64,000 bases of DNA from an uncultured Candidatus Binatia bacterium (GCA_965213675.1 CBDCAF010000018.1:7840-71839); one strand, 5' to 3'; positions 36,893 through 59,447 are shown, counted from the stretch's first letter. A program made the numbers and translations. The notes: generated from the letters alone by a model not told the origin.

Positions 36893-39800
36893 TTGGCCAA
36901 TTCTCGCAACTTCAGCGAATATGATAAAGCAACTACAGACTTGCCCGCACCGCTTGAGAGAACGCCCTTGGAAGACGCCGCCCGACTATTACCCGAACGT
37001 TTCCCCGACGTCGGGGAACTCGTCGAAGTGCGTTCACGCCGCTGGCTGGTGGAGGCGGTGGAGTCGGAATCGGGCCGCGTCAGCCTTGCCTGCGCGGACG
37101 ACGACGCCCAAGGGCAGACCCTGGAGGTCTACTGGGAATTCGAGATCGACCGGCGCATCCTTGAGGTGGAGGCGTGGAACGCCATCGGCGCCAAGGGGTT
37201 CGACGCGCCCCGCCACTTCAGCGCGTTCCTCCACACGTTGCGCTGGAACTGCGTCACCGCCACCGACCCGAATCTCTTCCAGTCGCCGTTCCGGGCCGGC
37301 ATCAAGATCGACGCCTACCAGATGGAGCCGCTCCGCAAGGCGCTTCGGCTGCCACGGGTCAATCTGTTCATCGCGGACGATACCGGCCTCGGCAAGACCA
37401 TTGAGGCCGGTCTCATCGCGCGGGAATTGTTGCTACGCAAGAAGGTCAAGACGATGGTCGTCGCCGCGCCGGCCTCCGTGCTGGAGCAGTGGAAGGCCGA
37501 GATGGAAGAGCGTTTCGGTCTGCTGTTCGTGATCCTCGACCGCGCTTACCTCACGCAGGTCCGGCAGGAACGCGGCTTCGGCGTGAATCCCTGGCGTACC
37601 CATAGCAGGTTCCTGGTGTCCCACAACCTGCTCATTGACCCGACCTACGCCGATCCGATGCGTGAGTGGCTCGGGGCTCTTCTGCCCGGCAGCCTGCTCA
37701 TCCTCGACGAGGCCCACCATGCCGCGCCGTCGAGCGGCGGGCGTTACGGCATCGAGTCGAAGTTCACCCGGGCGGTCCGTGATGTTGGCGGCCGGTTCGA
37801 ACACCGTCTGTTTCTGTCCGCCACTCCCCACAACGGCCACTCCAACAGCTTCTCCACGCTGCTTGAGCTGCTTGATCCGTACCGTTTTACCCGCGGCGTG
37901 CCGGTGCGGGGAAAGAAGGACCTCGACGAGGTCATGGTCCGGCGCATCAAGGAAGACATCCGCGAGGTGCAGGGCGGCTTCCCCAGACGGCACGTGGAGC
38001 CGGTTCGGATCGATGGCCTGCCGGACGACGCACCGGAACTCGTTTTGTCGAGGCTCCTTGACGAATATCGCGGCTTGCGGGAGCAGCGGCTGGCCGGCGC
38101 CAGGCCGCGAGCCCAGGCCATGGCCGGTTTGCTCGTGGTGGGGCTGCAACAGAAGCTCCTGTCATCCATCGAAGCGTTCGCCATCTCGCTCGCGCGGCAT
38201 CGCAGGACGATTGAGCGACTTTGGGCGCAAGACACTGAAGACGGTCAGAACGTCCCGGATACACGGGTTGAGACCGTGGCGACCGAACCATTTCTGAAAC
38301 TGTTCGCAAAACCGCCGGACGCGGACGACGAACGCGCGGAACAGACCGACGAAGAGAACGCGGCCGAGGAAGAGGCGCAGATCACGGCCATCAACGAGAC
38401 TGCCGAGCTAGGTACCCCCACGGATGAAGGAGCAAAGGCGGCTTGGGATAAGGAGCAGGCCCTCCTGACTCGTATGCACGAAGTCGCCGATGGCGCCCGC
38501 GGCCGCCCTGACGCCAAGACCCGCCGCCTGATCGACTGGATCTACGACAACCTCTGTCCCGACCGCCCGCGCTGGAACGAACGGCGGGTGCTGATCTTCA
38601 CCGAGAACGTGATCGGCACGAAACGGTACTTGCGCGAGATGCTGGAGCAGGCCATTGCCGGCACCGACTTCGCCGAGGAGCGCATCGAGACCATTGACGG
38701 CCAGACCGCCGGCGCCAGGCGCAAGGAGATTCAACGTCGCTTCAACGCCGATCCGGCCCACGATCCGTTACGCATCCTCATTGCCACAGACGCGGCGCGC
38801 GAGGGGCTGAACTTCCAGGCGCACTGCACCGACCTGTTCCACTTCGACCTGCCCTGGAACCCTGGCCGCATCGAACAGCGCAACGGCCGCATCGACCGCA
38901 AGCTGCAACCGGCCCCGGAGGTGCGCTGCCACTACTTCGTGCTGCCGCAGCGCGCCGAGGACCGGGTACTTGAAGTGCTGGTTCGGAAGACCGCCACCAT
39001 CAGGCAGCAGCTCGGCAGTCTCTCCAAAGTGATCGATGACGAGGTGGAGCGCCGGCTGCGCGAAGGCATCCGTCACGGAGACGTGGAGCGCATCGCGCGC
39101 GACATTGAGGCGGCCGATCTCGACCGTGAAAGGCGACGAGTAGCGGCCGAGGAACTGGAAGCCGCCCGCGAACGGCAGGACGACTTGAAGGGGCAGATCG
39201 AACGATGCCGCGGGCTGCTGGACCAGTCCCGCCGCTGGGTGCAGTTCGAGGCGCAACCCTTTCGCAACGCTCTGTCCTGTTCCCTGGAGATGCTGGGTGC
39301 GGAGCCGTTGAAGGAAACACGTACCGACGATGGCGGGGTGGTCTGGACGCTGCCGCCGCTGGCGGGCAAGGCGCGGGCGGATGCAAGTTGGACCGCCACA
39401 CTGGACACGTTGCGCGCGCCGCGCAAGACCGACCAGAAGCTCGCGGAATGGCGGCAGCAGGCGCCGATTCGTCCGGTGGTGTTCGAGGATGCGGGTGTGC
39501 TCACCGACGACACCGTGCATTTGCACCTGGAACAACGCATGGCGCAACGGCTGCTGGCGCGCTTTCGCTCCCAGGGCTTCGTCTACCATGACCTGTCCCG
39601 CGCCTGTCTCGTGCAGGCCGCGGACTCCGTCCCTCGGGTGATTCTGCTGGGGCGGCTGTGTCTCTTCGGACGCCATGCCGAGCGTCTGCACGAGGAGTTG
39701 ATCCCGGTGGCGGCCCGCTGGGTCGAGCCGTCGCGCCGCAACGGGCCGCTCAGGGCCTATGCCGAGGAGGCGGAAGCACGAACGCTGGAACGCCTGGAGA

Positions 39801-40234
39801 CGGCCTTGCAGAGCGCACGAGGCCCGAACGAGACGATTCACCGCAGGCTGCGCGACATTGCCGCTCAGGATATCGAAGACCTGCTGCCGCAACTCGAAGA
39901 CCGCGCCGAGGGTGTGGCCCGGAGCGCTGGGGACAGGCTTCGCGCACGTGGCGAAAGGGAGGGACAGCAGCTTCGGGAGACCCTGGAACGTCAGCGCCGG
40001 CGAGTGGAAACGGAACTCGGCAAGCACGAGGGCCGCGGAACCCAGCTCACGCTGGAGTTCAGTGAAGCCGAGAAGCGCCAGCTTCAGGCCGACATCGCGT
40101 CGTGGCGCGTGCGTCTGGACCGGTTCGACAAGGACCTTAAGACCGAACCGGCCCGGATCCGCGAGTTCTACGAAGTGCGGGCACAACGAGTCGAGCCCAT
40201 CGGCTTGGTGTACCTGTGGCCGGACACCGGTTGA
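36893..40234 (+). CDS. drmD: SNF2-family helicase, DISARM class 1 DrmD-like
   Basis: Contains DDTGLGKTIEAG, LILDEAHHAAP, LSATPHNG, IATDAAREGLNFQ, DLPWNPGRIEQRNGRIDR. TTG start, with no earlier in-frame start. Confidence 0.8.
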   Translation: MANSRNFSEYDKATTDLPAPLERTPLEDAARLLPERFPDVGELVEVRSRRWLVEAVESESGRVSLACADDDAQGQTLEVYWEFEIDRRILEVEAWNAIGAKGFDAPRHFSAFLHTLRWNCVTATDPNLFQSPFRAGIKIDAYQMEPLRKALRLPRVNLFIADDTGLGKTIEAGLIARELLLRKKVKTMVVAAPASVLEQWKAEMEERFGLLFVILDRAYLTQVRQERGFGVNPWRTHSRFLVSHNLLIDPTYADPMREWLGALLPGSLLILDEAHHAAPSSGGRYGIESKFTRAVRDVGGRFEHRLFLSATPHNGHSNSFSTLLELLDPYRFTRGVPVRGKKDLDEVMVRRIKEDIREVQGGFPRRHVEPVRIDGLPDDAPELVLSRLLDEYRGLREQRLAGARPRAQAMAGLLVVGLQQKLLSSIEAFAISLARHRRTIERLWAQDTEDGQNVPDTRVETVATEPFLKLFAKPPDADDERAEQTDEENAAEEEAQITAINETAELGTPTDEGAKAAWDKEQALLTRMHEVADGARGRPDAKTRRLIDWIYDNLCPDRPRWNERRVLIFTENVIGTKRYLREMLEQAIAGTDFAEERIETIDGQTAGARRKEIQRRFNADPAHDPLRILIATDAAREGLNFQAHCTDLFHFDLPWNPGRIEQRNGRIDRKLQPAPEVRCHYFVLPQRAEDRVLEVLVRKTATIRQQLGSLSKVIDDEVERRLREGIRHGDVERIARDIEAADLDRERRRVAAEELEAARERQDDLKGQIERCRGLLDQSRRWVQFEAQPFRNALSCSLEMLGAEPLKETRTDDGGVVWTLPPLAGKARADASWTATLDTLRAPRKTDQKLAEWRQQAPIRPVVFEDAGVLTDDTVHLHLEQRMAQRLLARFRSQGFVYHDLSRACLVQAADSVPRVILLGRLCLFGRHAERLHEELIPVAARWVEPSRRNGPLRAYAEEAEARTLERLETALQSARGPNETIHRRLRDIAAQDIEDLLPQLEDRAEGVARSAGDRLRARGEREGQQLRETLERQRRRVETELGKHEGRGTQLTLEFSEAEKRQLQADIASWRVRLDRFDKDLKTEPARIREFYEVRAQRVEPIGLVYLWPDTG

Positions 40235-40239
40235 GACCC

Positions 40240-43200
40240 ATGCCTGCGCCCGACCCACACACCCGCGCCCATCTCGAATGGCTCGGCTTCATCCAGCCGA
40301 ACGGCCTCGTGGTCTCCGCTCCGGCCCTGGTCAAGGCTGGGGCCATCCTCAACCGGCACGATGTCGAAGGGCAGGAGTTGCTGGACGCTTGGTTGAACCA
40401 ACGCGATGGATCGCCTGCGCGCCCTCGGGAACAGTGCCTCCAGGACTTCCGCGTATTCGCGAAGACCATCCTCGGCTGGGGTTTCTCGCCCAAGGGATAC
40501 GCGGGTACGGAGGAGACCCCTATCCCGGCGGCACTTAAGGTTCCTCTCCCCGACTACGGAGAGACGCTGCGTCCGGACTTCGCGGTGTGCGAGCGCGACC
40601 CGCAGGCCGGGGAATTGCCGTGGCAGTTGCTCGTGCAGGTGCTGGAAGAGGGTGAAGGCTTCGACAGGCCGACCGCCGGCGGACTGAAAACCTCTCCGCA
40701 GGATCGAATGGAGCGCCTCCTCCGCAGCACCGGAGTTCCTGCTGGTGTGCTCTTCAACGGCGCTGCGCTACGTCTCGTCTCGGCCCCGCGCGGCGAAAGC
40801 TCCGGCTGGATGGACTTTCGTTTGGCCGACATGGCCCAGACCGCGGGGCGGCCTCTGTGCGCGGCGTTGCGCCTTCTTTTGTGTGAGCAACGCCTGTTGA
40901 CAGGGCCGAAGGAACATCGCCTGGCGGCGCTGCTCGCCGACAGCCGCCGGTATCAGAACGAGGTCAGCGAGCGGCTTTCCGAGCAGGTCATGCACGCACT
41001 CTATGACCTCCTTCGAGGGTTCCAGGCGGCCCAGGACGAATCCCGCGGAGAGCTGCTGCGGGAACCGCTCTCCGCGGAAGGCGACCCCAACGACATCTAT
41101 CGCGGCCTTCTCGCCGTCATCCTCCGCCTCGTCTTTCTGCTCTACGCCGAGGAGCGCCGCATGCTTCCGGGCGGCGAGACCTTCATCCAGCACTATTCGG
41201 TTGGCGGCCTCTACCAGCGCCTGCGCGAGGAGGCGGCCTTGCACCCGGATACCATGGATCAGCGCTACGGCGCGTGGGCGCAGCTTCTCGTGCTGTTCCG
41301 CCTTATTCACGACGGGGCGGGTGGGCACAAGACCGGAGGCAGCGTCAGCCTTCCGGAACGCCGCGGCGTTTTGTTCAACCCGGATCGGTATCCGTTCCTC
41401 GAGGGCCGTCACAGCGGCGGCGGCCGGCAGATCACCGAGCGGGTCCAGCCGCCGCTGGTCTCCGACGGCGCCGTCTACCGGGTGCTGGAGAAGCTGGTAG
41501 TCCTCGACGGCGAGCGCATTTCCTACCGCACCCTGGACGTGGAACAGATCGGGTCCGTTTACGAGGTCATCATGGGCTTCCGTCTGGAGACCGCCACCGG
41601 CCGGTCCATGTCCGTCAAGTCCGCCAAGAAGCTTGGGGCGCCGAGCACCGTCGATCTCGACGAGTTGGCGAGACAGCCCGGCGAACGTCGTGGGAAATGG
41701 CTCCAGGACCGCGTGGACCGCACCCTCACCGACACCGTCAGGAAGGGACTGCGGGCAGCCGATACGGTGGATGACCTTCACTTGGCGCTGGACCGGGTGC
41801 TGGACAAGGACGCCACGCCGGACCTCGTCACTCCCGGCTCCCTGGTGCTGCAACCCAGTGATGAGCGCCGCCGCTCGGGCTCCAACTACACGCCGCGGGA
41901 ACTCACCGAACCGATTGTCCGCCACACTCTGGAGCCCCTGCTCAATCGGCTTCGCGGCGAGGATGGACAGGCACCGTCTCCCGCCCGGATTCTCGACCTC
42001 AAGATTTGCGATCCGGCCATGGGTTCCGGCGCCTTTCTGGTGGAAACCTGTCGCCAGCTCGCGGATGCGCTCACCGAGGCATGGCACAAGCACGATGAGA
42101 CGCCGGTAATCCCGCCTGACGAAGACGAGGGGATCCATGCCCGCCGTCTGGTCGCCCAGAAGTGCCTCTACGGCATCGACCGGAATCCCATGGCTGTGGA
42201 CCTGGCCAAGACCTCGCTGTGGCTCAGCACGTTGGCGCGGGACCACCCGCTCACCTTCCTGGACCACGCGTTCCGCCATGGCGACGCCCTCGTCGGATTG
42301 ACCCGGAAACAGGCCGAGGCGTTCCACTGGATCCCGGATAGACCTCCTGAAGAGGGTTTCGAGATCATGAGGGTGCGGGAACACATGACGGAGTTGGCCG
42401 CGCTGCGCCAGCGCATCAGGGACGCGGGCGAGGATGTCTCCGATCAAGAACTGCACGACATCTGGCAAGATGCGCGCGACGAGCTTGGCGCCGTCCGGCT
42501 CTACGGCGATCTGGCGCTGGCGGCGTTCTTCGCTGAAACCAAACGGGGGCCAAGGGAAGGGAAGAGGCGCGAATTCGCCGCAGCCGCCTGGGGTGGTCAG
42601 GCCGAGCGCTACCTGGGATGGATCGGGGACCAGCGCGGCAGCGACCCGCCGCTCGCTCCTTTCCACTGGGAAATCGAGTTCCCCGAGGTGTTCGAGCGCG
42701 AGAATCCGGGGTTCGACGCGTTCGTCGGGAACCCGCCGTTCGCCGGGAAAAATAGCGTCGTCGCTGGTAACGTCGTGGGTTATCCCGACTGGCTCAAGAC
42801 CGTCCACAGAGAGAGCCACGGCAACGCCGACCTTGTAGCGCACTTCTACCGGCGTGCGTTCAACCTCCTGCGTGAAGGGGGCGCGTTCGGTCTGATTGCC
42901 ACCAACACCATCGCCCAAGGCGATACCCGTTCCACCGGACTGCGCTGGATTTGCGAGAACAACGGCTCGATCTTCCGCGCCACCAAACGGGTCAAGTGGC
43001 CCGGCGACGCGGCCGTGGTGGTCAGCGTGCTGCACGTCGCCAAGGGCGAATTTGCAGGAACCAAGGTGCTCGACGGCAGGGATGTGGAGAACATCACCGC
43101 GTTCCTCTTCCACAAGGGCGGCCACGCCGACCCGGCGCGCCTCGAAGCGAACGCCGGCAAGAGCTTCCAGGGAAGCATCGTCCTCGGAATGGGCTTCACC

Positions 43201-45390
43201 TTTGACGACACGGACAAGAAGGGCGTCGCCAACCCGCTGTCGGAGATGCAGCGGCTGATCGAAGCAGACCCGCGCAACGGCGAGCGCATCTTCCCGTACA
43301 TCGGTGGCGAGGAGGTGAACACCAGCCCGACCCACGCCCATCACCGATACGTGATCAACTTTGAGGACTTTCCGTTGCGGAGGGAGGACCTGGGAAAGCA
43401 GTGGGCGGACGCGGGGGAAGACTTGCGCCGCACATGGCTGCGGCGCGGGGTGGTCCCGCTGGACTATCCGGAGCCGGTGGCAGCGGATTGGCCGGATTTG
43501 CTGGCGATTGTGGATGAGCGAGTGAGGCCGGAGCGAAGCAAGCTCACGAAGAATCCCATCGGTCGAAAGCGAGCGGAGTTCTGGTGGCGTTACGGCTCGA
43601 CGGCAAACGAACTCTACGCCGCCAGCGCCAGTCAGCCTCGAGTTTTGGTGATTTCGAGATACGGACAAGTTGCTGCATTCACGTTCTTGCCCGCCGGCGC
43701 TGTCTATAGCGATTCATGCATCATATTCCCGGTCGACACCTATGCCGCCCTGTGCGTCCTCCAGTCCCGCCCCCACGAGATCTGGGTGCGCTTCTTTGGC
43801 TCGTCGATGAAGGACGACCTCCGCTACACGCCATCCGACTGCTTCGAGACTTTCGCTTTTCCTGATGATTGGGCAACGGCCACGGCGCTGGAGGCCGCAG
43901 GCAAGGCGTATTTTGAGCACCGAGTGACGCTGATGCTCTGTAACGGTGAGGGTCTGACCAGAACCTTAAACCGCTTTCATGACCCCTACGATGGCAATCC
44001 GAATATCATCCGTCTCCGAGAACTCCACGCCGCCATGGACCGCGCCGTCCTCGACGCCTACGGCTGGACCGACATCCCCACCGACTGTGATTTCCTCCTC
44101 GACTACGAAATCGACGAGGCTACTTGGGGCGTGAAGAAAAAGCCGTACCGCTATCGCTGGCCCGACAAAATTTGCGACGAAGTCCTTGCTCGCCTTCTCG
44201 CCCTCAATGTTGAGCGTTCCGAAGAGGAAGCCCGTGCACGGCTGGTGCAGAAGCCGGTCCGAAAGAAACGCCATCGCGTCCTGATGGTGGCAGAACAACC
44301 TCCTCTCTGGGATCGTCCAATGACTGACCAGACTCCACAGCGGTTCACGCCGTTGGTGAAGCGCTCTCGTCCCAAGCCTTCGACGATCTATCCGGTTCTC
44401 TGGAAATTTGCGTGTGAGCGCCAGCGGGTCTATCTACGGCGCGTCGCAGGCGACCCAAGCCCGTGGACTACGGACACTGTGCTGTCAGAATACAAGTTCA
44501 CGAATGCCTTCAGAGCCGCTGACAGGGTGAGTCAGTACCTGATTCAGTTGATCTATTCTGATGCTAAGGCCAGCGGCGCCAACGTGTTTCTGAGAGCCCT
44601 TTTATTCAAGGTCTTCAACAAGATCGAGACGTGGGACAGGGTCGTTAACGGACTCGGCATGCCTGTCGCTCACGAGTTCGACTACGCGGCGTGCGACGAT
44701 TTGCTTGTCAATCTTCGTCGGCAGGGGGCGCCGATTTACTCCGCCGCTTACATCATGCCATCGGGAGGACGAGTCGGGATGCCGAAGCACCGGATGCATC
44801 TCGAACTGATTCGCAGAATGCTTGATGAACGCCTTCCGGAGAAGCTGCAGGAGTCGAAGTCGCTGGCTGAAGCCTACGAGATGGTTCTTTTGTATCCCAC
44901 GTTGGGACCCTTTCTCGCTTTCCAGTACGTTATCGACCTAAATTATTCGACCCTGATGAACCACTCGGAACAGAGATTCGTGGTTGCCGGCCCCGGCGCC
45001 TTGGATGGACTGTCCAAGTGCTTCGAGTCGCTTGGGGAGTATGATCCGGCCGACGCCATCCTATGGTTGTCCGACATCCAAGCGGACGAGTTCGCGCGGT
45101 ATGGACTCGAATTCGGGGGTCTATGGGGACGCCCGCTTCAGCCGATCGATGTCCAGAATCTGTTCTGTGAGGTCTCGAAGTACACTCGGGTGACACATCC
45201 AGAGATAAGAGGCCTGACCAAGCGTAAACGCATCAAGCAAAGATTTGCGATGACAGGGCCGCTCGCCAAGCCCTTCTTCCCGCCCAAATGGGGCTTGAAT
45301 CAACGAATTGACGAGTGGCTCCCGCGCCGAACGGGTGCAACTCTCGAACAACGCGAGCTTTTCTTCCCAACCCCAGCCAGGCCTACGTGA
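40240..45390 (+). CDS. drmMI: N6-adenine DNA methyltransferase (Eco57I/type IIG-like), DISARM DrmMI-like, fused to an extra C-terminal domain of about 356 aa (from 44320)
   Basis: SAM motif ICDPAMGSGAFLVE and catalytic FVGNPPFAGKN. ATG lies 5 nt after the drmD stop. The C-terminal part has no methylase motifs: LWKFACERQRVYLRR...PWTTDTVLSEYKFTNAFRAADRVSQYL. Confidence 0.8.
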   Translation: MPAPDPHTRAHLEWLGFIQPNGLVVSAPALVKAGAILNRHDVEGQELLDAWLNQRDGSPARPREQCLQDFRVFAKTILGWGFSPKGYAGTEETPIPAALKVPLPDYGETLRPDFAVCERDPQAGELPWQLLVQVLEEGEGFDRPTAGGLKTSPQDRMERLLRSTGVPAGVLFNGAALRLVSAPRGESSGWMDFRLADMAQTAGRPLCAALRLLLCEQRLLTGPKEHRLAALLADSRRYQNEVSERLSEQVMHALYDLLRGFQAAQDESRGELLREPLSAEGDPNDIYRGLLAVILRLVFLLYAEERRMLPGGETFIQHYSVGGLYQRLREEAALHPDTMDQRYGAWAQLLVLFRLIHDGAGGHKTGGSVSLPERRGVLFNPDRYPFLEGRHSGGGRQITERVQPPLVSDGAVYRVLEKLVVLDGERISYRTLDVEQIGSVYEVIMGFRLETATGRSMSVKSAKKLGAPSTVDLDELARQPGERRGKWLQDRVDRTLTDTVRKGLRAADTVDDLHLALDRVLDKDATPDLVTPGSLVLQPSDERRRSGSNYTPRELTEPIVRHTLEPLLNRLRGEDGQAPSPARILDLKICDPAMGSGAFLVETCRQLADALTEAWHKHDETPVIPPDEDEGIHARRLVAQKCLYGIDRNPMAVDLAKTSLWLSTLARDHPLTFLDHAFRHGDALVGLTRKQAEAFHWIPDRPPEEGFEIMRVREHMTELAALRQRIRDAGEDVSDQELHDIWQDARDELGAVRLYGDLALAAFFAETKRGPREGKRREFAAAAWGGQAERYLGWIGDQRGSDPPLAPFHWEIEFPEVFERENPGFDAFVGNPPFAGKNSVVAGNVVGYPDWLKTVHRESHGNADLVAHFYRRAFNLLREGGAFGLIATNTIAQGDTRSTGLRWICENNGSIFRATKRVKWPGDAAVVVSVLHVAKGEFAGTKVLDGRDVENITAFLFHKGGHADPARLEANAGKSFQGSIVLGMGFTFDDTDKKGVANPLSEMQRLIEADPRNGERIFPYIGGEEVNTSPTHAHHRYVINFEDFPLRREDLGKQWADAGEDLRRTWLRRGVVPLDYPEPVAADWPDLLAIVDERVRPERSKLTKNPIGRKRAEFWWRYGSTANELYAASASQPRVLVISRYGQVAAFTFLPAGAVYSDSCIIFPVDTYAALCVLQSRPHEIWVRFFGSSMKDDLRYTPSDCFETFAFPDDWATATALEAAGKAYFEHRVTLMLCNGEGLTRTLNRFHDPYDGNPNIIRLRELHAAMDRAVLDAYGWTDIPTDCDFLLDYEIDEATWGVKKKPYRYRWPDKICDEVLARLLALNVERSEEEARARLVQKPVRKKRHRVLMVAEQPPLWDRPMTDQTPQRFTPLVKRSRPKPSTIYPVLWKFACERQRVYLRRVAGDPSPWTTDTVLSEYKFTNAFRAADRVSQYLIQLIYSDAKASGANVFLRALLFKVFNKIETWDRVVNGLGMPVAHEFDYAACDDLLVNLRRQGAPIYSAAYIMPSGGRVGMPKHRMHLELIRRMLDERLPEKLQESKSLAEAYEMVLLYPTLGPFLAFQYVIDLNYSTLMNHSEQRFVVAGPGALDGLSKCFESLGEYDPADAILWLSDIQADEFARYGLEFGGLWGRPLQPIDVQNLFCEVSKYTRVTHPEIRGLTKRKRIKQRFAMTGPLAKPFFPPKWGLNQRIDEWLPRRTGATLEQRELFFPTPARPT

Positions 45391-50504: not shown

Positions 50505-50903
50505 ATGGAAGCCAAACTCAAGCACCTTGAATTTATCCAGGGCGTAGTGAATCGCCTAGCGTCTGACTCCTTCCGAATGAAGGGCTGGGCGGTGGCCTTG
50601 GTTGCTGCGTTCTTTGTCCTGTTGGCAAGGGAAGGACGGATCGAATTTGCCCCGATAGCCGTGGTTCCCGTGCTTGTCTTCTGGGGACTCGACGGCTACT
50701 TCCTGTGGCAGGAACGTCTCTTCCGTGCCCTGTACGATCACGTTCGGCGTGTGAGTGAAGTCGACATTGACTTCTCCATGGATGTCGGCCCGTTTCGAAT
50801 GGGCTGGCGACGAACTTGGTTGGGCGCAACATTCTCGAAAACGCTGATCTTCTTCTACGGCGCGTTGACCATCGCTGTCGGCTTGGTGACGTGCATCTAC
50901 TGA
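50505..50903 (+). CDS. Small integral membrane protein (about 3 TM helices)
   Basis: Contains GWAVALVAAFFVLLA, IAVVPVLVFWGLDGYFLW, LIFFYGALTIAVGLVTCIY. An alternative GTG start is at 50475. Confidence 0.6.
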   Translation: MEAKLKHLEFIQGVVNRLASDSFRMKGWAVALVAAFFVLLAREGRIEFAPIAVVPVLVFWGLDGYFLWQERLFRALYDHVRRVSEVDIDFSMDVGPFRMGWRRTWLGATFSKTLIFFYGALTIAVGLVTCIY

Positions 50904-51420: not shown

Positions 51421-52673
51421 AGACCGCTATCGTCTGTATGAAAGCATCCATCGAGCAACCCAACCCTGGAGCCGATCCCGGAACGATCACGCGCGTAGCC
51501 CTGCGTAACTACAAAAGCATTGCCGCCTGCGATGTCGAGTTGACGCCGCTCACTGTCCTCGTGGGTCCCAACGGTTCCGGCAAGAGTAATTTCCTTGACG
51601 CCCTGTGCTTTGCGGCGCAGGCATTGCGTTTTTCTCTGCACCATGCTGTACACGAGCGCGGTGGGATCAACGAGGTGCGCCGGCTTTCCCACGGCCATCC
51701 CAACCGCTTTGGCATCCGTCTGGATTTCCGTTTGTCCGACGCAACAGGGTGGTACGCGTTCAAGATCGGAGTGCGACGGAACGGCGGCTGTGTCGTACAC
51801 CGCGAGGAATGTGCTATCCAACACGCCGACCCTGGAGAAAGGCAGTATTTCCGAATAGGCGACGGTCGTCTACTGTCTACCTCCATCCCACACCCGCCGC
51901 CGACAGGTGGAAGTGACCGACTTTACCTACAGTCGGCCTCAGGATTTCGAGCGTTCCGGCCGATTTACGATATGTTGGCGGGAATGGGGTTCTACAATCT
52001 CAAGCCGGACCGGATTCGAGACTTCCAGTCGCCGGACCGCGGGGATCTCCTCAAACGGAATGGAAGCAACATCGCCAGCGTTCTCGCCAACCTTGAGTCA
52101 CGTTCCCCAGAGGTTGCAACACGGGTCGGCCAATACCTGTCCAAGGTCGTCCCGGGAACGGTCGGCGTGGCGTCGAAGACGGTCGGACCCAAGCTGACCC
52201 TGGAGTTTTGTCAGCAGGTGCGTGGCGATCCGCACCCTCGGCGGTTTCTTGCCAACAACGCTTCAGAAGGGACGTTGCGGGTCGTCGGGGTACTCGTAGC
52301 GCTTTGTCAGAGTATCGGAGTGGAATCGGGGAACGTGAAACTGGTCGGCATCGAAGAACCGGAAGGCACCCTTCACCCTGCGGCTGCCGGAGTGCTGTCC
52401 GACATACTGCGCGAGGCGAGCGAGCGTGTGCAGGTTGTCGTCACCAGCCAGAGTGCGGACTTGTTGGATCGGAAAACGATTCCATTGGAATCCATCCTGG
52501 CGGTCGTCTCCGAGGACAATGAGACGAAAATTGCCCGGCTTGATGCGGCAGGCCACACGGCACTCCGGGAAGATATGTTCACGGCGGGGGAGATGCTTCG
52601 GATGAATCAGCTTACGCCGAATCCAAAGCAGGTGGCGCCCGTTCACCTGGACCTCTTCCGTAAGGAGGAGTAG
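51417..52673 (+). CDS. ABC/SMC-type AAA ATPase (AAA_21/COG4637-like)
   Basis: Walker A LVGPNGSGKSNFLDAL, signature-like ASEGTLRVVGVL, Walker B LVGIEEPEGTLHP. The TTG start overlaps the TIR stop by 4 nt. An alternative ATG is at 51438. Confidence 0.75.
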   Translation: MKTAIVCMKASIEQPNPGADPGTITRVALRNYKSIAACDVELTPLTVLVGPNGSGKSNFLDALCFAAQALRFSLHHAVHERGGINEVRRLSHGHPNRFGIRLDFRLSDATGWYAFKIGVRRNGGCVVHREECAIQHADPGERQYFRIGDGRLLSTSIPHPPPTGGSDRLYLQSASGFRAFRPIYDMLAGMGFYNLKPDRIRDFQSPDRGDLLKRNGSNIASVLANLESRSPEVATRVGQYLSKVVPGTVGVASKTVGPKLTLEFCQQVRGDPHPRRFLANNASEGTLRVVGVLVALCQSIGVESGNVKLVGIEEPEGTLHPAAAGVLSDILREASERVQVVVTSQSADLLDRKTIPLESILAVVSEDNETKIARLDAAGHTALREDMFTAGEMLRMNQLTPNPKQVAPVHLDLFRKEE

Positions 52674-52698
52674 GGGAAGGTGTCAAGGAGGCGTGTTC

Positions 52699-53049
52699 AT
52701 GCCGCGCAACACATCGGTTTCTCTCGGGTATCACTTCATCGGTTTCATCGACGAGCGTGTGCAGTCCGGTCGTTACAACTCGGCAAGCGATGTGGTGCGC
52801 GCCGGGCTGCGGCTGTTGGAAGAGCACGAAGCCAAGGTTGAGGCTCTGAGGGAAGCCCTCATCGAAGGCGAGCAATCCGGTCCGGCGACACCGTTTGACT
52901 TCGACGCGTTCATTACCCGCAAGAAGACTACTCAGGACGGTCAAGAGGGCCGTCCTGAGACCCAGTCCGAGTTTGCCAGCCAAGACCGCTACCCGGCCGG
53001 CCATGAAACGGGACGCCTGAACCGAGACGACATTGACGAAGGCGGTTAG
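52699..53049 (+). CDS. parD: ParD-family (RHH) antitoxin-like protein with an atypical C-terminal tail of about 35 aa
   Basis: Contains MPRNTSVSLGYHFIGFIDERVQSGRYNSASDVVRAGLRLLEEHEAKVEALREALIEGEQSGPATPFDFDAF. Confidence 0.8.
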   Translation: MPRNTSVSLGYHFIGFIDERVQSGRYNSASDVVRAGLRLLEEHEAKVEALREALIEGEQSGPATPFDFDAFITRKKTTQDGQEGRPETQSEFASQDRYPAGHETGRLNRDDIDEGG

Positions 53050-53461: not shown

Positions 53462-53842
53462 ATGACCTACCGAGAGCCATTGCCCCCTGGATGTCCGCCG
53501 AACCCCGCGGACGAAATCAACCTGCCACGTGAGCTGTTCCGGTTGGTGCGGAGCCTTCCACCCGCCGCAGAGGACTTCAGATCGTGGCGCGCGGAACAAC
53601 CGCAACGCGGTTTACCGAAGGAGTTGACGGAGTGCCAAGCCCGGGGACTGTCGGTCTATGCAGAGCGCTACGACCTGGAGAGCATCTTGAAGCTCCCGAA
53701 GTTCCGCGGACGTTGGATCTGTCGCCTGCGGCTGGGAGCGGGCGCGGGCCGGATTCAACAGACGGGGAGACCTTCGCACCATACTTGGTGGCCGCTGGCT
53801 GATTACGATTTCCTCGGCCAGTGTCACGTGGAAACGGCATGA
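53462..53842 (+). CDS. Hypothetical protein translationally coupled to drmA
   Basis: 126 aa. Its stop overlaps the drmA ATG (ATGA at 53839-53842). Composition resembles the flanking DISARM genes. No motif recognised. Confidence 0.55.
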   Translation: MTYREPLPPGCPPNPADEINLPRELFRLVRSLPPAAEDFRSWRAEQPQRGLPKELTECQARGLSVYAERYDLESILKLPKFRGRWICRLRLGAGAGRIQQTGRPSHHTWWPLADYDFLGQCHVETA

Positions 53843-56800
53843 GTACGATCCGTTACACCGCCAGTCTGCTGTACTACGACGGCCCACAGATCATCGAAGC
53901 CCGCGACGATGAGGGTCACGATTATCTGGCGTTGTTGGTGGAGAGTGACGGGGAAGACCGCTATCTGGCCGTGGAGGTTGCCGCTGATCGGTTGCACCAA
54001 TTTCGCAATGGTTCGCTGGACTTGAGGACGCTGCTGACCGAGTCGGCGAAGAATGGGTGGTATCTGACGACGACCGCGGATCTCGATCAACCGTTGACGA
54101 TTGTGCGCCAGCAGACGCCGGTCGGGGAAAGCGGATTTCTTCCCGCGGACGGCTTTGTGCTGCATGAATTGGGCTCGCCCGTTGAGCGCAAGCAAGAGAG
54201 CGTTGAGATGCCCACGAGACCGCCGAAGCTTGCCGACTCCGCTGAAGCGCGCGCCGAAATCACCCGCGCCCTCCGCCTGGACCTCGTCGGCCCCGGCGCG
54301 GACGGCTATCTCGCCGACGAGCAACTCCCCGGTTGGGTGCGTCCGTCCAACTGGTACCTCACCGGCTTCCTTGTTCCACGCTATGCCGGCTTTGAGCAGC
54401 GCGCCGATGCGGACTCGGACGATGAGATGGAGCCGGAGGTCTGCGAGGACATAGGCGCTGGCGACGACTCCAGCGAAGACCGTCGTGCCGCCAAGGCGGG
54501 GTTCTTTCCGTCGTCCATGGGTTTGAGCTTTCTCGCGGCGCCGGGGACCGACCGTGTCACCGCGGTCGTGCGCTGGGGCGACTACCGGAAGGTCGAGGGC
54601 AAGGTTTCCGCTGAAGAGGGAAGCGAATTGCCGGTTCGGTGGCAACGCACGCGGTGCGAAGCAACCCTGTCCATGGTCTTGCCGGAAGACAATTCGCCGC
54701 GGCATCTGCCTGTGCCCCACTCACGGGGCCTCGAAGTCCACGTCGTGGCCCGGACCATGGACGCGAGCCTCTTTGCCGGGAAGATCGCTCGGGACACGCG
54801 CTCCGTCTCCGTATTTCTGGTCAACGCCCGAGCACCGGCCGAGGACGACCGGCGGGACGAGGCATTTGCCTTTCAAGCACAGATCGAAGTGCAGTCCGAT
54901 GTCCCTTTCGCCGTGCGGCCCGACCTTCGCCCTGTATCGGGCGACAACTGGGATGAACGGGTGGCCGACCTGCACTATGCCGATGTTCCCGAGTATGCTT
55001 CCGGGCACGGCGTGGCAGCGACTTGGGAGGTCCGGGGCGGCGCCTGTCATGCCTTGCGAACGGACTGGACGCCCATCGCGGAAGTGGAGCATACCGAGCC
55101 GCTCACACACCTTGCCCGAACCGAACTGGACATGACTGCGCTGGGCCGGCTCGCCGATGGCGAGGCCGTGCGAACGGCTCTGATGCCGCTGGTATCCGGA
55201 TACCGTGAGTGGGTCGAAGCGCATGCACTCGGAGACCTCCCGGAGCAGCGGAAAGAGGTCGCTCGGGAGTTGCTGCACCGTGCCCGCCTGGCGGCAAGGC
55301 GCATGGAAAAGGGCATCGGCGTACTGGCCTCCGATGTGGAGGCGCGAGATGCTTTCTGCATGGCCAACCGGGCCGTCGCTGCGGCATTGGCGCGGCGCAT
55401 CGAAGACCCTCCCCGGTGGCGCGCCTTCCAACTCGCATTCGTGCTGTTGAACCTGCCCGGAATCGCCGACCCTTCCGATCCCGAGCGCGAGATCGTCGAC
55501 CTGCTGTTTTTTCCCACCGGCGGCGGCAAGACCGAGGCGTATCTCGGTCTGGCGGCCTTCACCATGGCGTTGCGGCGGCTGCGCAACCCTGCGGACAACG
55601 GACGCGCTGGCGCCGGCGTCAGCGTCATCATGCGGTATACGCTACGCCTGTTGACACTGGACCAACTCGGTCGCGCCGCCGCGCTGGTGTGCGCGATGGA
55701 ACTTGAACGTAAACGCGATGTTGAACGCTACGGCGTGTGGCCGTTCGAGATCGGCCTGTGGGTCGGCAAGGCGGGCACTCCCAACTGGCTCGGCAAGAAG
55801 GGCGACCGCAATTCGGATTCCGCGCGTGCCAAGGTCAACCGGTACAAGGACAATCCGCAGGCTCGGCCCATACCCATCCCGCTGGAGAACTGTCCCTGGT
55901 GTGCCCACAGGTTCACGCCCGATTCCTTTGCGCTGCTGCCGAACGCCGACGCGCCCACGGATTTGCGCATTTCTTGCTCGAACTGGGAATGCGAGTTTTC
56001 CGGCGACCCGCCGCTTCCTATCGTTGCTGTGGACGAGCCCCTGTACCGGCGTCTGCCGGCCTTTCTGATTGCCACGGTGGACAAGTTCGCGTCTCTGCCT
56101 TGGGTTGGACAGTCCGGGGCGCTGCTCGGCGGCGCGGACCGCTTCGATGACGAAGGGTTCTACGGCGCCGCCGACCCGCGAACAGGGAATCCGCTCACGA
56201 CGCCGTTGTTGCCGCCCGATCTGGTGATTCAGGACGAGATGCACCTCATCTCCGGGCCGCTCGGCACCATGACCGGCTTGTACGAGGCGGCCATCGAGAC
56301 GCTGTGCGTGCGCGAGGCGGAGGGCCGGATCGTAAGGCCGAAGATCGTCGCCTCTACCGCCACCGTGCGGCAGGCCCACGAGCACATCCAGGCGCTTTTC
56401 GCCCGGCCCGACACCCAGGTGTTTCCGCCGCCGGGGCCGGACCGTCGCGATTCGTTCTTCGCCCGCACGGTCCCGGCCGCTGAGAAGAACGCTCGTCAGT
56501 ACGTTGGCGTCGTGGCCCAGGGGCGCAACCCCAAGGTGGTGATGCGCCGGGTGCTGCTGGCGCTGATGGCCGCGGCGGAGCGCGTCTGGCGGGACGCCGG
56601 CGGCCCGGGCAACAAGCAAAATCCCGCCGACCCGTACATGACGGCTCTCGGCTACTTCAACAGCCTGCGGGAACTCGGCGGGGCACGGCGGATTCTGGAA
56701 GAGGAAGTGCAGAATACGCTGAAGGGCTACAGCAACCGCAAGCGGCTCAATGAAGCGACGAGTCTGTTCCGTGATCGCACACGGTTCTCGGACGTAGTGG

Positions 56801-57621
56801 AGCTCACGTCGCGGGTCAGCGCCGACCAGGTGGCCGTGGCGCGCCGGCGGCTGGAACGTCCCTTTTTTGATGACGAGCACAACGAGCGGGTGGACTGCGC
56901 CATCGCCACCAACATGATTTCCGTGGGACTGGATATCCAGCGGCTGGGGTTGATGGTGGTGAACGGACAACCGAAGACTCATGCCGAGTACATTCAGGCC
57001 ACCAGCAGGGTGGGGCGGGACGACAGCCGCCCGGGGCTCGTGGTCACGCTCTATAACGTCCACAAACCGCGGGACCGGTCCCACTACGAGCAGTTCCTGA
57101 ACTACCACAACACGTTCTATCGTTCGGTGGAGGTCGTCAGCGTGACCCCCTTCGCCGCGCGGGCGCTGGACCGAGGTTTCGCGGGCGCGCTGGTCGGACT
57201 GGCCCGGCATGGCCGTTCGCGGATGACGCCACGGACTGGCGCGCAGGACATCGAAGCAGAGCGCGCGGTGCTGGAGCCCCTGCTGCTTCACGCTTTCGAG
57301 GAGCGAGTGCGCGGCCAGCCGGTTCAGGACGACGCGGAACGCGACGAGCGGCTGCGCAGCGTTCGGCGTCGCGTCGGCGACCTGCTCGATTCCTGGACCG
57401 CCATTTGGCAGGACTACCGTGCCAGCGGCGCGGCCATGCAGTACCAGCGTTATGAACGGGGGGGCGTGGAGAAACCGTTGCTCAGGGACATGCTGGATGC
57501 GGATTTCGAGTCGGAGCACCACAGGAAGTTTTGCGCCAACCGCTCGCTCCGCGATGTCGAGCCCGCGGTGGACCTTTACGTGCAGGACCTCCCAAGCGCC
57601 CTGGATGGGGGCGGTGGATGA
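53839..57621 (+). CDS. drmA: DEAD/DEAH-type helicase, DISARM DrmA-like
   Basis: Contains LFFPTGGGKTEAYLGLAAF, VIQDEMHLISGPLG, ASTATV, IATNMISVGLDIQRLGLMVVNGQPKTHAEYIQATSRVGR. Confidence 0.8.
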   Translation: MSTIRYTASLLYYDGPQIIEARDDEGHDYLALLVESDGEDRYLAVEVAADRLHQFRNGSLDLRTLLTESAKNGWYLTTTADLDQPLTIVRQQTPVGESGFLPADGFVLHELGSPVERKQESVEMPTRPPKLADSAEARAEITRALRLDLVGPGADGYLADEQLPGWVRPSNWYLTGFLVPRYAGFEQRADADSDDEMEPEVCEDIGAGDDSSEDRRAAKAGFFPSSMGLSFLAAPGTDRVTAVVRWGDYRKVEGKVSAEEGSELPVRWQRTRCEATLSMVLPEDNSPRHLPVPHSRGLEVHVVARTMDASLFAGKIARDTRSVSVFLVNARAPAEDDRRDEAFAFQAQIEVQSDVPFAVRPDLRPVSGDNWDERVADLHYADVPEYASGHGVAATWEVRGGACHALRTDWTPIAEVEHTEPLTHLARTELDMTALGRLADGEAVRTALMPLVSGYREWVEAHALGDLPEQRKEVARELLHRARLAARRMEKGIGVLASDVEARDAFCMANRAVAAALARRIEDPPRWRAFQLAFVLLNLPGIADPSDPEREIVDLLFFPTGGGKTEAYLGLAAFTMALRRLRNPADNGRAGAGVSVIMRYTLRLLTLDQLGRAAALVCAMELERKRDVERYGVWPFEIGLWVGKAGTPNWLGKKGDRNSDSARAKVNRYKDNPQARPIPIPLENCPWCAHRFTPDSFALLPNADAPTDLRISCSNWECEFSGDPPLPIVAVDEPLYRRLPAFLIATVDKFASLPWVGQSGALLGGADRFDDEGFYGAADPRTGNPLTTPLLPPDLVIQDEMHLISGPLGTMTGLYEAAIETLCVREAEGRIVRPKIVASTATVRQAHEHIQALFARPDTQVFPPPGPDRRDSFFARTVPAAEKNARQYVGVVAQGRNPKVVMRRVLLALMAAAERVWRDAGGPGNKQNPADPYMTALGYFNSLRELGGARRILEEEVQNTLKGYSNRKRLNEATSLFRDRTRFSDVVELTSRVSADQVAVARRRLERPFFDDEHNERVDCAIATNMISVGLDIQRLGLMVVNGQPKTHAEYIQATSRVGRDDSRPGLVVTLYNVHKPRDRSHYEQFLNYHNTFYRSVEVVSVTPFAARALDRGFAGALVGLARHGRSRMTPRTGAQDIEAERAVLEPLLLHAFEERVRGQPVQDDAERDERLRSVRRRVGDLLDSWTAIWQDYRASGAAMQYQRYERGGVEKPLLRDMLDADFESEHHRKFCANRSLRDVEPAVDLYVQDLPSALDGGGG

Positions 57622-59447
57622 ACGGCAACGAACGCGGGCAGATACGCCGCAGCCAGGTCATCACGACGTTCGGGCCGGGCGCGTTGATCGACCTGCCGCG
57701 ACACTCCGCCATCGTCGGCGGACTGGAGACCTGGAGCCCGGACCTGGAGGAAATAGCCGAACCGCGGCTCACGGCGAAGCTGATGCAGATGACGGGGGTT
57801 CCCCACCCCCGGCTCTACGCTCCTCCACCGGAGCAGCGGAGGCCGTTGGACAAGAAGCGGAACATCGGCGCGTGGCGCTTTCCGGAGTGGTTCGTGGTGC
57901 AGGAGGGCAACTGGGACGGCCGGAACTCCCGCTCCCGGCGTCTCGTGCATCGCAAGGCGCTGAACCCCAAGGGAAGATTCGAGATCCTCGACGACAACGG
58001 CAGGCGTGCCGGCAACGACGTGGTGGCCACCCGTTTTGTCCGCGCCTGCGCCCGAGGCCATGTGGACGACATCGACTGGTACGCCTTCGTGCACGGCGGC
58101 AACGACCCATGCCGGCGACAGTTGTGGCTGGACGAACGCGGCACCAGCGGCGACCTGGCGGAACAAGTCGTTCGTTGTGAATGCCGTAAGCAGCGGCGCA
58201 TGTACGAGGCCACGCGGTTTGAGGATTTCCCCTTGGGGGTTTGCAGTGGCGCGCGGCTCTGGCTGGGCCGCCACGCCAGGGAGGAATGCCATGAGCCGAG
58301 CCGGCTGCTGATCCGCACCGCGTCGAACGCCTGGTTCCCTCAGGTCGTGAGCGTGCTGTCGTTGCCGGACCGAGGCAGTAAGGTGGAACAGGCGGTCGAA
58401 GCGATCTGGGACCGGCTGCAGATCGTTGACGATGCCGCCGGTCTCGGCTTCGTGAAGAAATACCCGGAGGTGGCCACGCGGCTGGCGCCGTTCCCGGACC
58501 AGGATGTGCTGGACGTGATCGCGGCCCGCCATGCCGGAGGGTCCGCCGGTTCGCGCCCCATCAAACGCGCCGAGATGGATGTCCTGCTCGCGGCAGCCGA
58601 GGGTTACGGCGATGACATGGCTGTCGACCCCGACTTCCACGCCCGCCGCCTGCCGGACTCGGCTTGGCGCCGTTCGGGGCGGTTCGATGCCGTCGAAGCA
58701 GTGATCCAGGTCCACCGGCTTCGGGAAGTGCTGGCGCTAGCCGGGTTCACGCGACTGGAAGCCGTGATGCCCGACGTGGACGGGGAGTACGACGCCACCG
58801 TCGAGCGGGCCGACATCGCACGGGAGCCGCAGTGGTTCCCCGCGGTCGAAAACCGCGGCGAGGGCATCGTGGTGCAACTCCGGGCCGAAAACGTGCGGGA
58901 GTGGCTGGGACGGGATGCGGTCAAGACACGGCTCGATATCCTGATGGCCGGACACGACGCCTGGGCGGAGAAACAGAGCGGAAGGCGCTCCACACCGCCA
59001 CAGTTTCCGGGCGGACCGTACGTGCTCCTGCACACGCTGGCGCATCTGCTGATTCAATCATTGTCCCTGCGGTGCGGCTACCCGGCCGCTTCCATTCGCG
59101 AACGCATCTTCGTCGATCCGGCCGGCGCCCGGCATGCTTTGCTTCTCTATACCGCGACGCCGGACGCCGAAGGCACCTTGGGCGGTCTCGTGCAGCAGGC
59201 GCGCGATGTCGAAGCGCATCTCCGCCAGTCTCTGGAAGCCGGAGCGCTGTGCTCCAACGATCCCGTCTGCGCCGAGCACGTACCCGGCGACAGCATGGAA
59301 GAACGTTGGCTGCACGGCGCCGCCTGCCACGGCTGCGCGCTCATCGCGGAGCCTTCCTGCGAGATGCGCAACGAGTACCTGGATCGCGCGCTGGTGGTGC
59401 CGACCCTCCAGGCGCGGGCCGCGGCTTTTTTTGACGTCCTCGTCTGA
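57618..59447 (+). CDS. drmB: DUF1998-domain protein, DISARM DrmB-like
   Basis: The ATG overlaps the drmA stop (ATGA). Contains RRSQVITTFGPGALIDL, LLHTLAHLLIQ, PDAEGTLGGLV and the C-terminal Cys cluster CHGCALIAEPSCEMRNEYLDR. Confidence 0.8.
   Translation: MNGNERGQIRRSQVITTFGPGALIDLPRHSAIVGGLETWSPDLEEIAEPRLTAKLMQMTGVPHPRLYAPPPEQRRPLDKKRNIGAWRFPEWFVVQEGNWDGRNSRSRRLVHRKALNPKGRFEILDDNGRRAGNDVVATRFVRACARGHVDDIDWYAFVHGGNDPCRRQLWLDERGTSGDLAEQVVRCECRKQRRMYEATRFEDFPLGVCSGARLWLGRHAREECHEPSRLLIRTASNAWFPQVVSVLSLPDRGSKVEQAVEAIWDRLQIVDDAAGLGFVKKYPEVATRLAPFPDQDVLDVIAARHAGGSAGSRPIKRAEMDVLLAAAEGYGDDMAVDPDFHARRLPDSAWRRSGRFDAVEAVIQVHRLREVLALAGFTRLEAVMPDVDGEYDATVERADIAREPQWFPAVENRGEGIVVQLRAENVREWLGRDAVKTRLDILMAGHDAWAEKQSGRRSTPPQFPGGPYVLLHTLAHLLIQSLSLRCGYPAASIRERIFVDPAGARHALLLYTATPDAEGTLGGLVQQARDVEAHLRQSLEAGALCSNDPVCAEHVPGDSMEERWLHGAACHGCALIAEPSCEMRNEYLDRALVVPTLQARAAAFFDVLV

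Follow-up and report, generated by a model that had tools for sequence, protein, structure and literature searches.

Does a class 1 DISARM defense locus that has been cut in two, and that lacks one of its five genes, still encode a single system, and what are the genes that separate its halves? The question is raised by a 64,000-nucleotide stretch of DNA from an uncultured Candidatus Binatia bacterium (GCA_965213675.1, CBDCAF010000018.1:7840-71839; hereafter the window, with positions counted from its first nucleotide), in which drmD and drmMI stand together, drmA and drmB stand together, some 8.4 kb of other genes lies between the two pairs, and drmC is missing. Our analysis favors, at a probability of roughly 0.7, an intact class 1 DISARM system without DrmC, in which the gap is an embedding site whose chief occupant is an autonomous MazG_C/HMUDK_hel cassette and in which HMUDK_hel has been captured by drmMI. 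What is new here is the coupling of DISARM to that cassette; the split and the missing phospholipase D (PLD) gene are ordinary.

Four intact DISARM genes in two halves

An initial annotation, made from the sequence alone, had assigned to the window the gene content of class 1 DISARM minus drmC. The four genes, with the PADLOC matches of the present analysis, are as follows.

36893..40234, plus strand: drmD, SNF2-type helicase of 1113 amino acids (aa) (PADLOC PDLC02621, E=3e-303)
40216..44325, plus strand: drmMI core, N6-adenine methyltransferase, residues 1-1370 (PDLC02643, E=0)
53839..57621 (frame from 53821), plus strand: drmA, YprA-family helicase, 1260 aa from the ATG (PADLOC PDLC02575, E=3e-277)
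57618..59447 (frame from 57531), plus strand: drmB, DUF1998/MZB protein (PADLOC PDLC02583, E=3e-80; PF09369)

Each product matched its PADLOC DISARM model very strongly, and the hidden Markov models (HMMs) gave DISARM rather than another system; together with the Pfam domains and a match to the solved DrmA of Serratia (PDB 7S9V, E=1e-168), this bears out the assignment. The ATG starts at 40240, 53839, and 57618 exist, drmD and drmMI are adjacent, and drmA and drmB are contiguous and overlapping as described, the drmA stop and the drmB start sharing ATGA (a 4-nt overlap). The whole drmMI open reading frame (ORF) runs from 40216, or from the alternative ATG at 40240, to 45390, and the PADLOC DrmMI model spans its residues 15-1354. 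Catalytic motifs are intact: GLGKT at residue 165 and DEAH at 272 in DrmD (Pfam SNF2-rel_dom and Helicase_C); the S-adenosylmethionine motif ICDPAMGSG at 597 and NPPF at 839 in DrmMI (Eco57I, MmeI_Mtase, MmeI_TRD, and N6_Mtase); and GGGKT (Walker A) at 567 and DEMH at 805 in DrmA (Helicase_C, pfam00271).

All four genes lie on one strand in canonical order, and the locus has the DrmA helicase, a DrmB adjoining drmA, a DrmD upstream, and the DrmMI methylase that it shares with class 1 DISARM as described previously (Ofir et al. 2018; Serratia sp. SCBI, Aparicio-Maldonado et al. 2021; 7S9V/7S9W). Unlike these systems, it has no drmC, carries HMUDK_hel on DrmMI, and couples a small ORF, u126, to drmA. 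It also departs from the gene contiguity of the class 1 systems described so far: the 8.4-kb separation measures 8448 bp (45391-53838) and holds 12 credible ORFs, of which seven form a dense, largely overlapping array on the minus strand and five are on the plus strand. That the spacer carries many ORFs was correctly noted in the initial annotation, whose count of about 11 was slightly low. The split itself is real; the reading of the spacer as an interruption is incomplete, though not wrong, over half of it being a conserved cassette that is fused to DrmMI.

By composition, the two DISARM halves appear to belong together and the block between them to be of different origin. GC content drops from ~65% to 55-60% between 44 and 54 kb. 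GC content at third codon positions (GC3) is 0.80 for DrmD, 0.785 for the DrmMI core, 0.786 for DrmA, and 0.816 for DrmB, while the HMUDK_hel part of drmMI (0.68) and every spacer gene fall within 0.62-0.70, the break coming exactly at the fusion junction (DrmMI residue ~1370). An origin of the halves from two unrelated systems was rejected on the shared GC3, the HMM assignments, and synteny in L006, L007, and L008, three of four related loci (L006-L009) that were identified via DrmA and aligned with the window in blastn and tblastn comparisons. A search for repeats flanking the low-GC block, direct or inverted, gave nothing meaningful.

Absence of drmC

The initial annotation had found no ORF with the PLD motif HxK(x)4D between 45 and 60 kb. 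A search of all six frames from 30 kb to the window end (open frames of >=30 aa) agrees, its one match being spurious and antisense within drmD. Nor was a convincing replacement found elsewhere in the assembly. The assembly comprises 21 contigs (4.5 Mb), with the window on contig C19 (83.9 kb); Pfam PLDc_2 (pfam13091) matches in the whole assembly are confined to contig C1, and none is a convincing DrmC. Three of the four C1 PLD ORFs were compared with PADLOC and rejected, being a type IV methyl-directed restriction enzyme, a PLD-SNF2 protein, and a weak 293-aa PLD protein whose match to DrmC is partial (31 bits) and which lies ~760 kb from a decayed allele of the DISARM site on C1. The fourth, a double-PLD frame of 715 aa, fell outside this three-ORF scan.

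Because 8 of 9 related genomes of this lineage have no PLD gene within ~80 kb of the DISARM locus, the lack of drmC is a trait of the lineage. The ninth, L015, has a PLD ORF (G005:C2:2042102-2042536; 408-aa frame, 58.6 bits) ~7 kb past the methylase end of the locus, a position other than the canonical one of drmC. DrmC was unnecessary for protection in class 1 and class 2 DISARM (Aparicio-Maldonado et al. 2021); since it is experimentally dispensable, its absence weakens strict class 1 membership and not the expected action of the system. The published PADLOC rule for DISARM type I requires all five proteins, DrmC included, so the concern that a rule-based detector might miss the locus is reasonable: published detection rules, which call for five genes with little space between them, would probably overlook this system or report it truncated.

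A hypermodification-related domain fused to DrmMI

The drmMI ORF continues beyond the methyltransferase core into a second domain.

44326..45390, plus strand: HMUDK_hel domain, last ~355 aa of the drmMI ORF (PF18723, E=8e-93), with the junction between PLWDRP and MTDQ

Two further loci, L014 and L026, carry HMUDK_hel as a separate gene that starts MTD directly after drmMI. The nucleotides in L026 read CCA AAT GAC TGA, so that the HMUDK_hel ATG overlaps the drmMI TGA stop, an overlap that, judged by its sequence, has the typical layout of translational coupling; in the window, L006, and L007 they read CCA ATG ACT GAC, with one A fewer and the frames joined. Whether fused or separate, HMUDK_hel is co-oriented with drmMI, and the remaining cassette converges on it, the 3' ends of the converging genes overlapping by 8 nt in the window, 16 nt in L010, and 24 nt in L011. 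About 10 protein clusters, all metagenomic, carry a methylase-HMUDK_hel fusion, the domain being 93% to 48% identical when the DrmMI C terminus is the query. The HMUDK_hel family as a whole has 5473 representatives at E<=0.001; among the best 150 of these, nearly all are standalone or mid-sized and one exceeds 1000 aa, and since the long methylase fusions are not among these 150, the ranking indicates simply that standalone forms dominate.

An AlphaFold2 model of HMUDK_hel (36-sequence alignment, pLDDT 90.9) had no significant neighbor in the PDB. Among predicted phage structures, its best fold match was the 5-hydroxymethyldeoxyuridine (5-hmdU) DNA kinase of Bacillus phage SP10 (E=2e-13, TM-score 0.76), followed by the HMUDK_hel proteins of PhiW-14 and phiRSL1, aGPT-Pplase, and amino-acid:DNA transferases (AADT). 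Every one of these matches is a DNA-acting component of thymidine hypermodification. The window domain shares its fold with the hypermodification enzymes of phages such as SP10 and PhiW-14, from which it differs in being bacterial, in having no P-loop kinase domain, and in standing in a defense locus with regulatory and protease genes.

The convergent minus-strand cassette

The seven minus-strand genes, which together take up about 5 kb, begin with a MazG-MazG_C gene that converges on HMUDK_hel.

45383..46462, minus strand: MazG-MazG_C, 359 aa (PF18722, E=2e-78; PF03819), convergent with drmMI, 8-nt overlap
46434..47297 (likely start 47228), minus strand: divergent thymidylate synthase (TS)-like (ThyA-like) protein (weak PF00303, E=5e-5; TIGR03283, E=5e-10)
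47228..47965 (likely start 47857), minus strand: papain-like (C1) cysteine peptidase (PF00112, E=7e-10)
47854..48837, minus strand: M78 (ImmA/IrrE, CapP-like) metallopeptidase with a chagasin-type I42 inhibitor domain (PF06114, E=1e-9; PF09394, E=3e-10; capP, E=7e-16)
48824..49186, minus strand: XRE-type helix-turn-helix (HTH) regulator, CapH-like (HTH_31, HTH_3; PADLOC capH, E=1e-11)
49221..49616, minus strand: u131, small conserved protein of 131 aa, no family match
49651..50433 (likely start 50322), minus strand: 4'-phosphopantetheinyl-transferase-like (PPTase-like) protein (weak ACPS and 4PPT_N; NCBIfam PptT and Npt below cut-off)

Residues expected of active enzymes are well kept among homologs. 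In the papain-like protein, Gln, Cys, and His, together with Asn and Trp of the Asn-Ser-Trp motif, are invariant (57/57); the HExxH of the M78 peptidase is present in 59 of 61 homologs, the Cys of the P/Q-C-L-S motif of the ThyA-like protein in 58 of 60, and the core residues of G(I/V)D(I/V)(E/D) and KEAxFK of the PPTase-like protein in 13-14 of 15. The D-S(K) motif of u131 is nearly invariant (Asp in 20/20 homologs, Ser in 19/20), and the adjoining PPTase-like gene suggests that u131 is possibly a carrier protein. The AlphaFold2 model of MazG-MazG_C (pLDDT 93.1) resembles all-alpha dimeric dUTPases of the PDB in its N-terminal MazG half (probability ~1, TM-score ~0.6 on the target); the PDB fold search gave MazG_C no significant match and no solved relative. 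A TS-fold enzyme and a MazG-type pyrophosphatase also neighbor each other in phage thymidine hypermodification pathways.

The cassette has no match in PADLOC v2 outside its capH/capP-like pair, the MazG, TS-like, papain-like, u131, and PPTase-like proteins matching none of its models, and none of the curated NCBIfam families covers any cassette protein. In the searchable literature, we found no paper describing the chagasin/papain/TS-like/MazG_C genes as a unit, which is not proof of novelty. CapH and CapP form a DNA-damage-activated repressor/peptidase switch that is found with some DISARM systems (Lau et al. 2022). The window shares with that switch an XRE HTH gene adjoining an M78 metallopeptidase gene; in the published system, however, the pair lies upstream of a divergent regulated operon and CapP ends in a GAF domain, whereas the pair in the window sits mid-operon on the same strand and its peptidase ends in the chagasin-type domain.

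Cassette and DISARM in related loci

Comparison with related genomes, which the initial annotation had suggested as a check on the insert, showed that its content varies. L006, L007, and L008 keep the split DISARM layout, with DrmA and DrmB 86-94% identical to those of the window. L006 and L007 also keep the DrmMI-HMUDK_hel fusion (90-94% aa identity) and MazG-MazG_C (72-73%); the genes from TS-like through PPTase-like are missing from both, and both have a ParD gene before HEC-01A. Standing in for the TS-like/papain/chagasin set in L006 (L006:5633-7203) are Nmad2 (PF18753, E=2e-67), a ThsB-like TIR protein, and an 8xMP membrane protein; L007 likely carries a replacement of the same Nmad2/TIR type. 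L008 keeps DISARM as well; its DrmMI ends just after a conserved LPWDQP motif, with no HMUDK_hel, and the cassette, u126, and DrmA residues 1-137 are all missing. The L008 spacer instead holds an AbiV-like HEPN protein, a complete HEC-01 (A and B), a CapP-like gene, DUF2513, and an SDH-type protease.

More distant loci retain the whole arrangement. L010 and L011 have the cassette in the same order and orientation between the fused methylase and a DrmA-DrmB fusion helicase: fused methylase, convergent MazG-MazG_C, TS-like, Peptidase_C1, M78(+I42), HTH, a protein of 120-136 aa, and PPTase-like, with HMUDK_hel domains 64% (L010) and 48% (L011) identical to that of the window. L010 has, in addition, a second, partial cassette (119-aa protein, HTH, M78+I42, and Peptidase_C1) upstream of its fused methylase (L010:7087-9370). 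MazG-MazG_C adjoins HMUDK_hel in L006, L007, L010, and L011 alike. MazG_C and HMUDK_hel look like a constant core with swappable partner modules.

An alignment search with MazG-MazG_C found >566 relatives in species-representative genomes of many phyla. Gene neighborhoods were counted in 10-kb flanks of the best-scoring 80 of these, with cassette HMMs built from the window, L010, and L011 and then rebuilt from the first-round matches. The TS-like gene is present in 56 of the 80 loci, TS-like, papain, M78, and HTH genes together in 54, and the same set with the small protein u131 in 53, which is also the number with any u131 homolog; HMUDK_hel is present in 31 and TIR in 16. The full cassette with the PPTase-like gene occurs in 12 loci. 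DISARM genes accompany the cassette in seven of the 80 (L012, L014, L015, L016, L023, L024, and L026), all of the PPTase-bearing subtype and belonging to Binatia-like, Vicinamibacterales, and gammaproteobacterial metagenome-assembled genomes, from three or more phyla. As far as these neighborhoods indicate, the cassette is free-standing in most genomes that carry it.

These counts bear on the best-surviving alternative, in which a distinct DISARM subtype includes the cassette as an integral accessory and the roughly 12-gene set is one machine, the cassette acting through the fusion either to replace DrmC or to extend DISARM to phages with modified thymidine. Such a machine is suggested by the fusion or translational coupling of HMUDK_hel to drmMI in at least 8 loci and by the presence of DISARM in 7 of the 12 loci with the PPTase-bearing cassette, and it would accord with the absence of DrmC across the lineage and with the EVE-like N-terminal domain of class 1 DrmA. 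Yet 47 of the 54 loci with the core cassette genes have no DISARM gene within 10 kb, L008 has DISARM without cassette or fusion, and L006 and L007 keep DISARM without most of the cassette, L006 having the Nmad2/TIR set in its place; the block also differs in composition from the DISARM core, and DISARM functions experimentally without DrmC. We therefore regard one combined machine as unlikely and prefer an autonomous cassette embedded in a DISARM locus.

Plus-strand cargo and flanks

The remaining genes of the gap, and the region downstream of drmB, are as follows.

50475..50903, plus strand: PDC-M50A membrane protein (PADLOC PDLC04686, E=2e-45)
50923..51420, plus strand: ThsB-like TIR protein, PDC-M50B (PF08937, E=3e-27; PADLOC ThsB, E=3e-67; PDC-M50B, E=2e-62)
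51417..52673, plus strand: HEC-01A-type ABC ATPase (PADLOC PDLC04178, E=7e-150)
52693..53049, plus strand: orphan ParD antitoxin (PF03693, E=4e-35)
53462..53842, plus strand: u126, small ORF of 126 aa, overlapping the drmA start by 4 nt (weak PD-T4-10_A, E=5e-5)
59448..59655, no strand: repetitive extragenic palindromic (REP)-like repeats of the CATTCCCGCGAAAGCGGGAAT type, between drmB and nuoA, read from the sequence

PDC-M50A and PDC-M50B are adjacent, as expected of that pair, and with HEC-01A they form a tightly coupled three-gene unit, in which 19 nt separate the first two genes and the second and third overlap by 4 nt. Some 40 bp lie between this unit and the cassette, from which it is divergent. 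The partner of HEC-01A, HEC-01B (TOPRIM), had no match among the 18 spacer and flank ORFs scanned against PADLOC, leaving the HEC-01 pair incomplete. Homologs of PDC-M50A adjoin the DISARM methylase in L012 and L024 and MazG in L057 and L062; in L057 and L062, M50A+TIR pairs immediately precede MazG, in L024 such a pair adjoins the DISARM methylase, and L012 has an M50A-like segment in the corresponding position. The pair of transmembrane and TIR proteins may belong to the same network as the cassette. In L012 (L012:12267-16244), the M50A-like membrane segment shares a stop-to-stop frame with the methylase C terminus, upstream of a separate HMUDK_hel; the shared frame may reflect another type of methylase fusion, or simply the lack of a stop codon between two genes.

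The small ORF u126 and DrmA residues 1-137 occur together in the window, L006, L007, and L026, and neither occurs in L008. Residues 8-77 of DrmA (window 53839-54250 region) weakly match PD-T4-10_B (E=2e-5). The N terminus of class 1 DrmA has an EVE-like domain predicted to read modified bases, as described in the paper on the YprA family. The pairing suggests that u126 and the DrmA N terminus are a two-part sensor/adaptor module common to class 1 DISARM and PD-T4-10.

Downstream of drmB, nuoA (59656-60150) does come after a REP cluster, as first described, with 208 bp of REP-like palindromes between the two genes. The same palindrome region is also present in the decayed C1 allele. For NuoCD, the nearest relatives, at 91% identity, come from metagenome-assembled genomes labeled as Binatia, and the next nearest reach 76%; the host probably belongs to the Binatia lineage.

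Decayed alleles of the site

The assembly of the window holds a second allele of the site on contig C1 (C1:1886626-1915000), whose flanks are 99.1-99.3% identical to those of the window. Ahead of nuoA it retains two pieces of drmD, namely the initial 515 bp and a fragment of 103 bp, and the ParD region. With a reported assembly contamination of 8%, C19 is, judging by these sequences, probably a strain variant in the same sample, and DISARM-positive and decayed alleles probably coexist in the population. In L009, DISARM is likewise nearly deleted, leaving the flank, a drmD stub, ParD, a drmA/drmB fragment, and nuoA. ParD is present in every allele of the site, including the DISARM-less L009 and C1; in the window, its homology ends after residue 80 and no ParE is left in 52693-53460. 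Among the alleles checked, ParE is intact, after ParD, in L006 only.

These alleles invite a second alternative, that the DISARM genes are an inactive remnant whose halves no longer cooperate and that the embedded genes alone, if any, are functional. The heavy deletions in C1 and L009, the frameshifted HEC-01A of L006, the fragmented DrmA of L026, the methylase fragments to which L014 is reduced, and the missing ParE and HEC-01B of the window all point in that direction. Against it, all four DISARM ORFs of the window are full length with intact catalytic motifs; they are undisrupted and 86-94% identical at the aa level to those of L006, L007, and L008 over the aligned lengths; and the genes are tightly coupled, with drmD and drmMI adjacent and 4-nt overlaps joining u126, drmA, and drmB. 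A dead remnant is accordingly a poor explanation of the window, with a probability below that of a combined machine.

Discussion

Our results are best explained by an intact, DrmC-less class 1 DISARM system that hosts an autonomous cassette in its gap. On the basis of gene identities, intact motifs, conservation, the manner of the fusion, and variability among relatives, we propose the following functional scheme. A four-gene DISARM that never had, or long ago lost, the dispensable drmC sits upstream of nuoA at a site that varies between strains. Its genes would form two units on the plus strand (drmD-drmMI and u126-drmA-drmB), with the space between them serving as an embedding site for other defense genes. 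DISARM would mark self DNA by N6-adenine methylation (m6A), and DrmAB and DrmD would restrict unmarked incoming DNA. The cassette, as a widespread predicted defense system in its own right with a MazG_C and HMUDK_hel core related to NTTI, might provide a second, inducible layer in which the HTH/M78 pair acts as a damage-type switch and the chagasin domain restrains the papain-like protease. Its minus-strand operon would work with the HMUDK_hel protein, whose gene a 1-nt change has fused to the upstream drmMI, and the ThyA-like, MazG, and HMUDK_hel proteins might target the pyrimidine nucleotide pool or the modified thymidine of phage DNA.

A third alternative, in which these same three proteins add a modified-thymidine second self-mark to host DNA beside DrmMI methylation, draws on the fold that HMUDK_hel has in common with phage enzymes acting on 5-hmdU in DNA, on its fusion to a self-marking methylase, and on the analogy with Dpd systems, in which DrmA-related YprA helicases occur together with DNA hypermodification and the mark is 7-deazaguanine, but it is highly improbable, as Pfam, PADLOC, and NCBIfam scans found no P-loop kinase domain, transferase, or glycosylase in the block, the HTH/M78 switch and the protease-inhibitor pair suggest an inducible response and not constitutive marking, the related NTTI defends Escherichia coli without any DISARM, and L006 and L007, both with the fusion, have no ThyA-like gene.

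Several observations weigh against the reading that we prefer, that of an intact host system with an embedded cassette. The 1-nt difference that creates the fusion is located in a short run of A residues and might be an assembly artifact; this is countered by the agreement of three independent assemblies (window, L006, and L007) and by the divergent L010 and L011, which are also fused. The decayed C1 and L009 alleles show that some strains are losing the island, and function in the window strain is not guaranteed. The two-unit organization is read from gene layout, promoter and terminator scans having been at chance level. HEC-01A without its partner and ParD without ParE indicate that part of the cargo is degenerate. 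Finally, the DISARM-linked fraction among the best 80 loci is neither an unbiased nor a complete estimate.

Embedding of genes in defense systems is common. According to the accessible text of the survey by Payne et al. 2024 (bioRxiv 10.1101/2024.01.29.577857), BREX, DISARM, Hma, and type I restriction-modification systems frequently hold embedded genes, more than half of these have no assigned function, and the same approach yielded the HEC and PDC candidates, among them HEC-01 and the PDC families to which genes of the window were matched. The locus fits embedding as described in that text, with extra genes inside an otherwise complete host system whose own genes share one strand and include no pseudogene, and it likewise places defense genes (HEC-01A and PDC-M50A/B) between genes of a multigene system. 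It differs from the systems presented there in that its main cassette matches no PADLOC v2 model save those of the capH/capP-like pair and in that one component is fused to a host protein, of which that part of the survey gives no example. Because embedded genes are frequent in DISARM and drmC is dispensable, the split and the loss of DrmC are unremarkable.

The closest validated relative is NTTI, which comprises TS, a deoxynucleoside monophosphate (dNMP) kinase, HMUDK_hel, TIR, and Nmad2 and was validated in E. coli by DefensePredictor (Science 2026, PMC13092281), where MazG and MazG-C are listed as predicted, unvalidated defense domains. The window shares HMUDK_hel, TS-fold, and TIR proteins with NTTI, and L006 shares Nmad2; by its gene content, the L006 set together with HMUDK_hel appears close to NTTI. 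In the window, neither a dNMP kinase nor Nmad2 was detected, and the locus is therefore related to NTTI and not a member of it; relative to NTTI, the window adds MazG-MazG_C, the papain/chagasin/M78/HTH genes, and the PPTase-like protein with its small partner, and its HMUDK_hel is fused to a methylase.

The locus has consequences beyond this one genome. Because published detection rules call for five genes and tolerate only short gaps, DISARM may be undercounted in environmental genomes. The region separating drmMI from drmA acts as a small defense island, with contents that vary even among close relatives, and DISARM loci are therefore useful for finding new systems. The cassette found here, with >500 MazG_C relatives, joins a protease-inhibitor pair and a possible PPTase-carrier pair to enzymes related to phage hypermodification. 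The 1-nt DrmMI fusion is classic Rosetta-stone evidence for a functional link, and fused and unfused forms can be compared directly. We consider, tentatively and as a doubtful possibility, that the fusion is a real functional coupling and that DISARM and cassette form a composite in which a phage hypermodification domain is tethered to the self-marking methylase. If so, the tethering would either counter phages hidden by hypermodified thymidine or add a second, non-methyl self-mark, and restriction-type immunity would be connected with immunity based on nucleotides or base modification.

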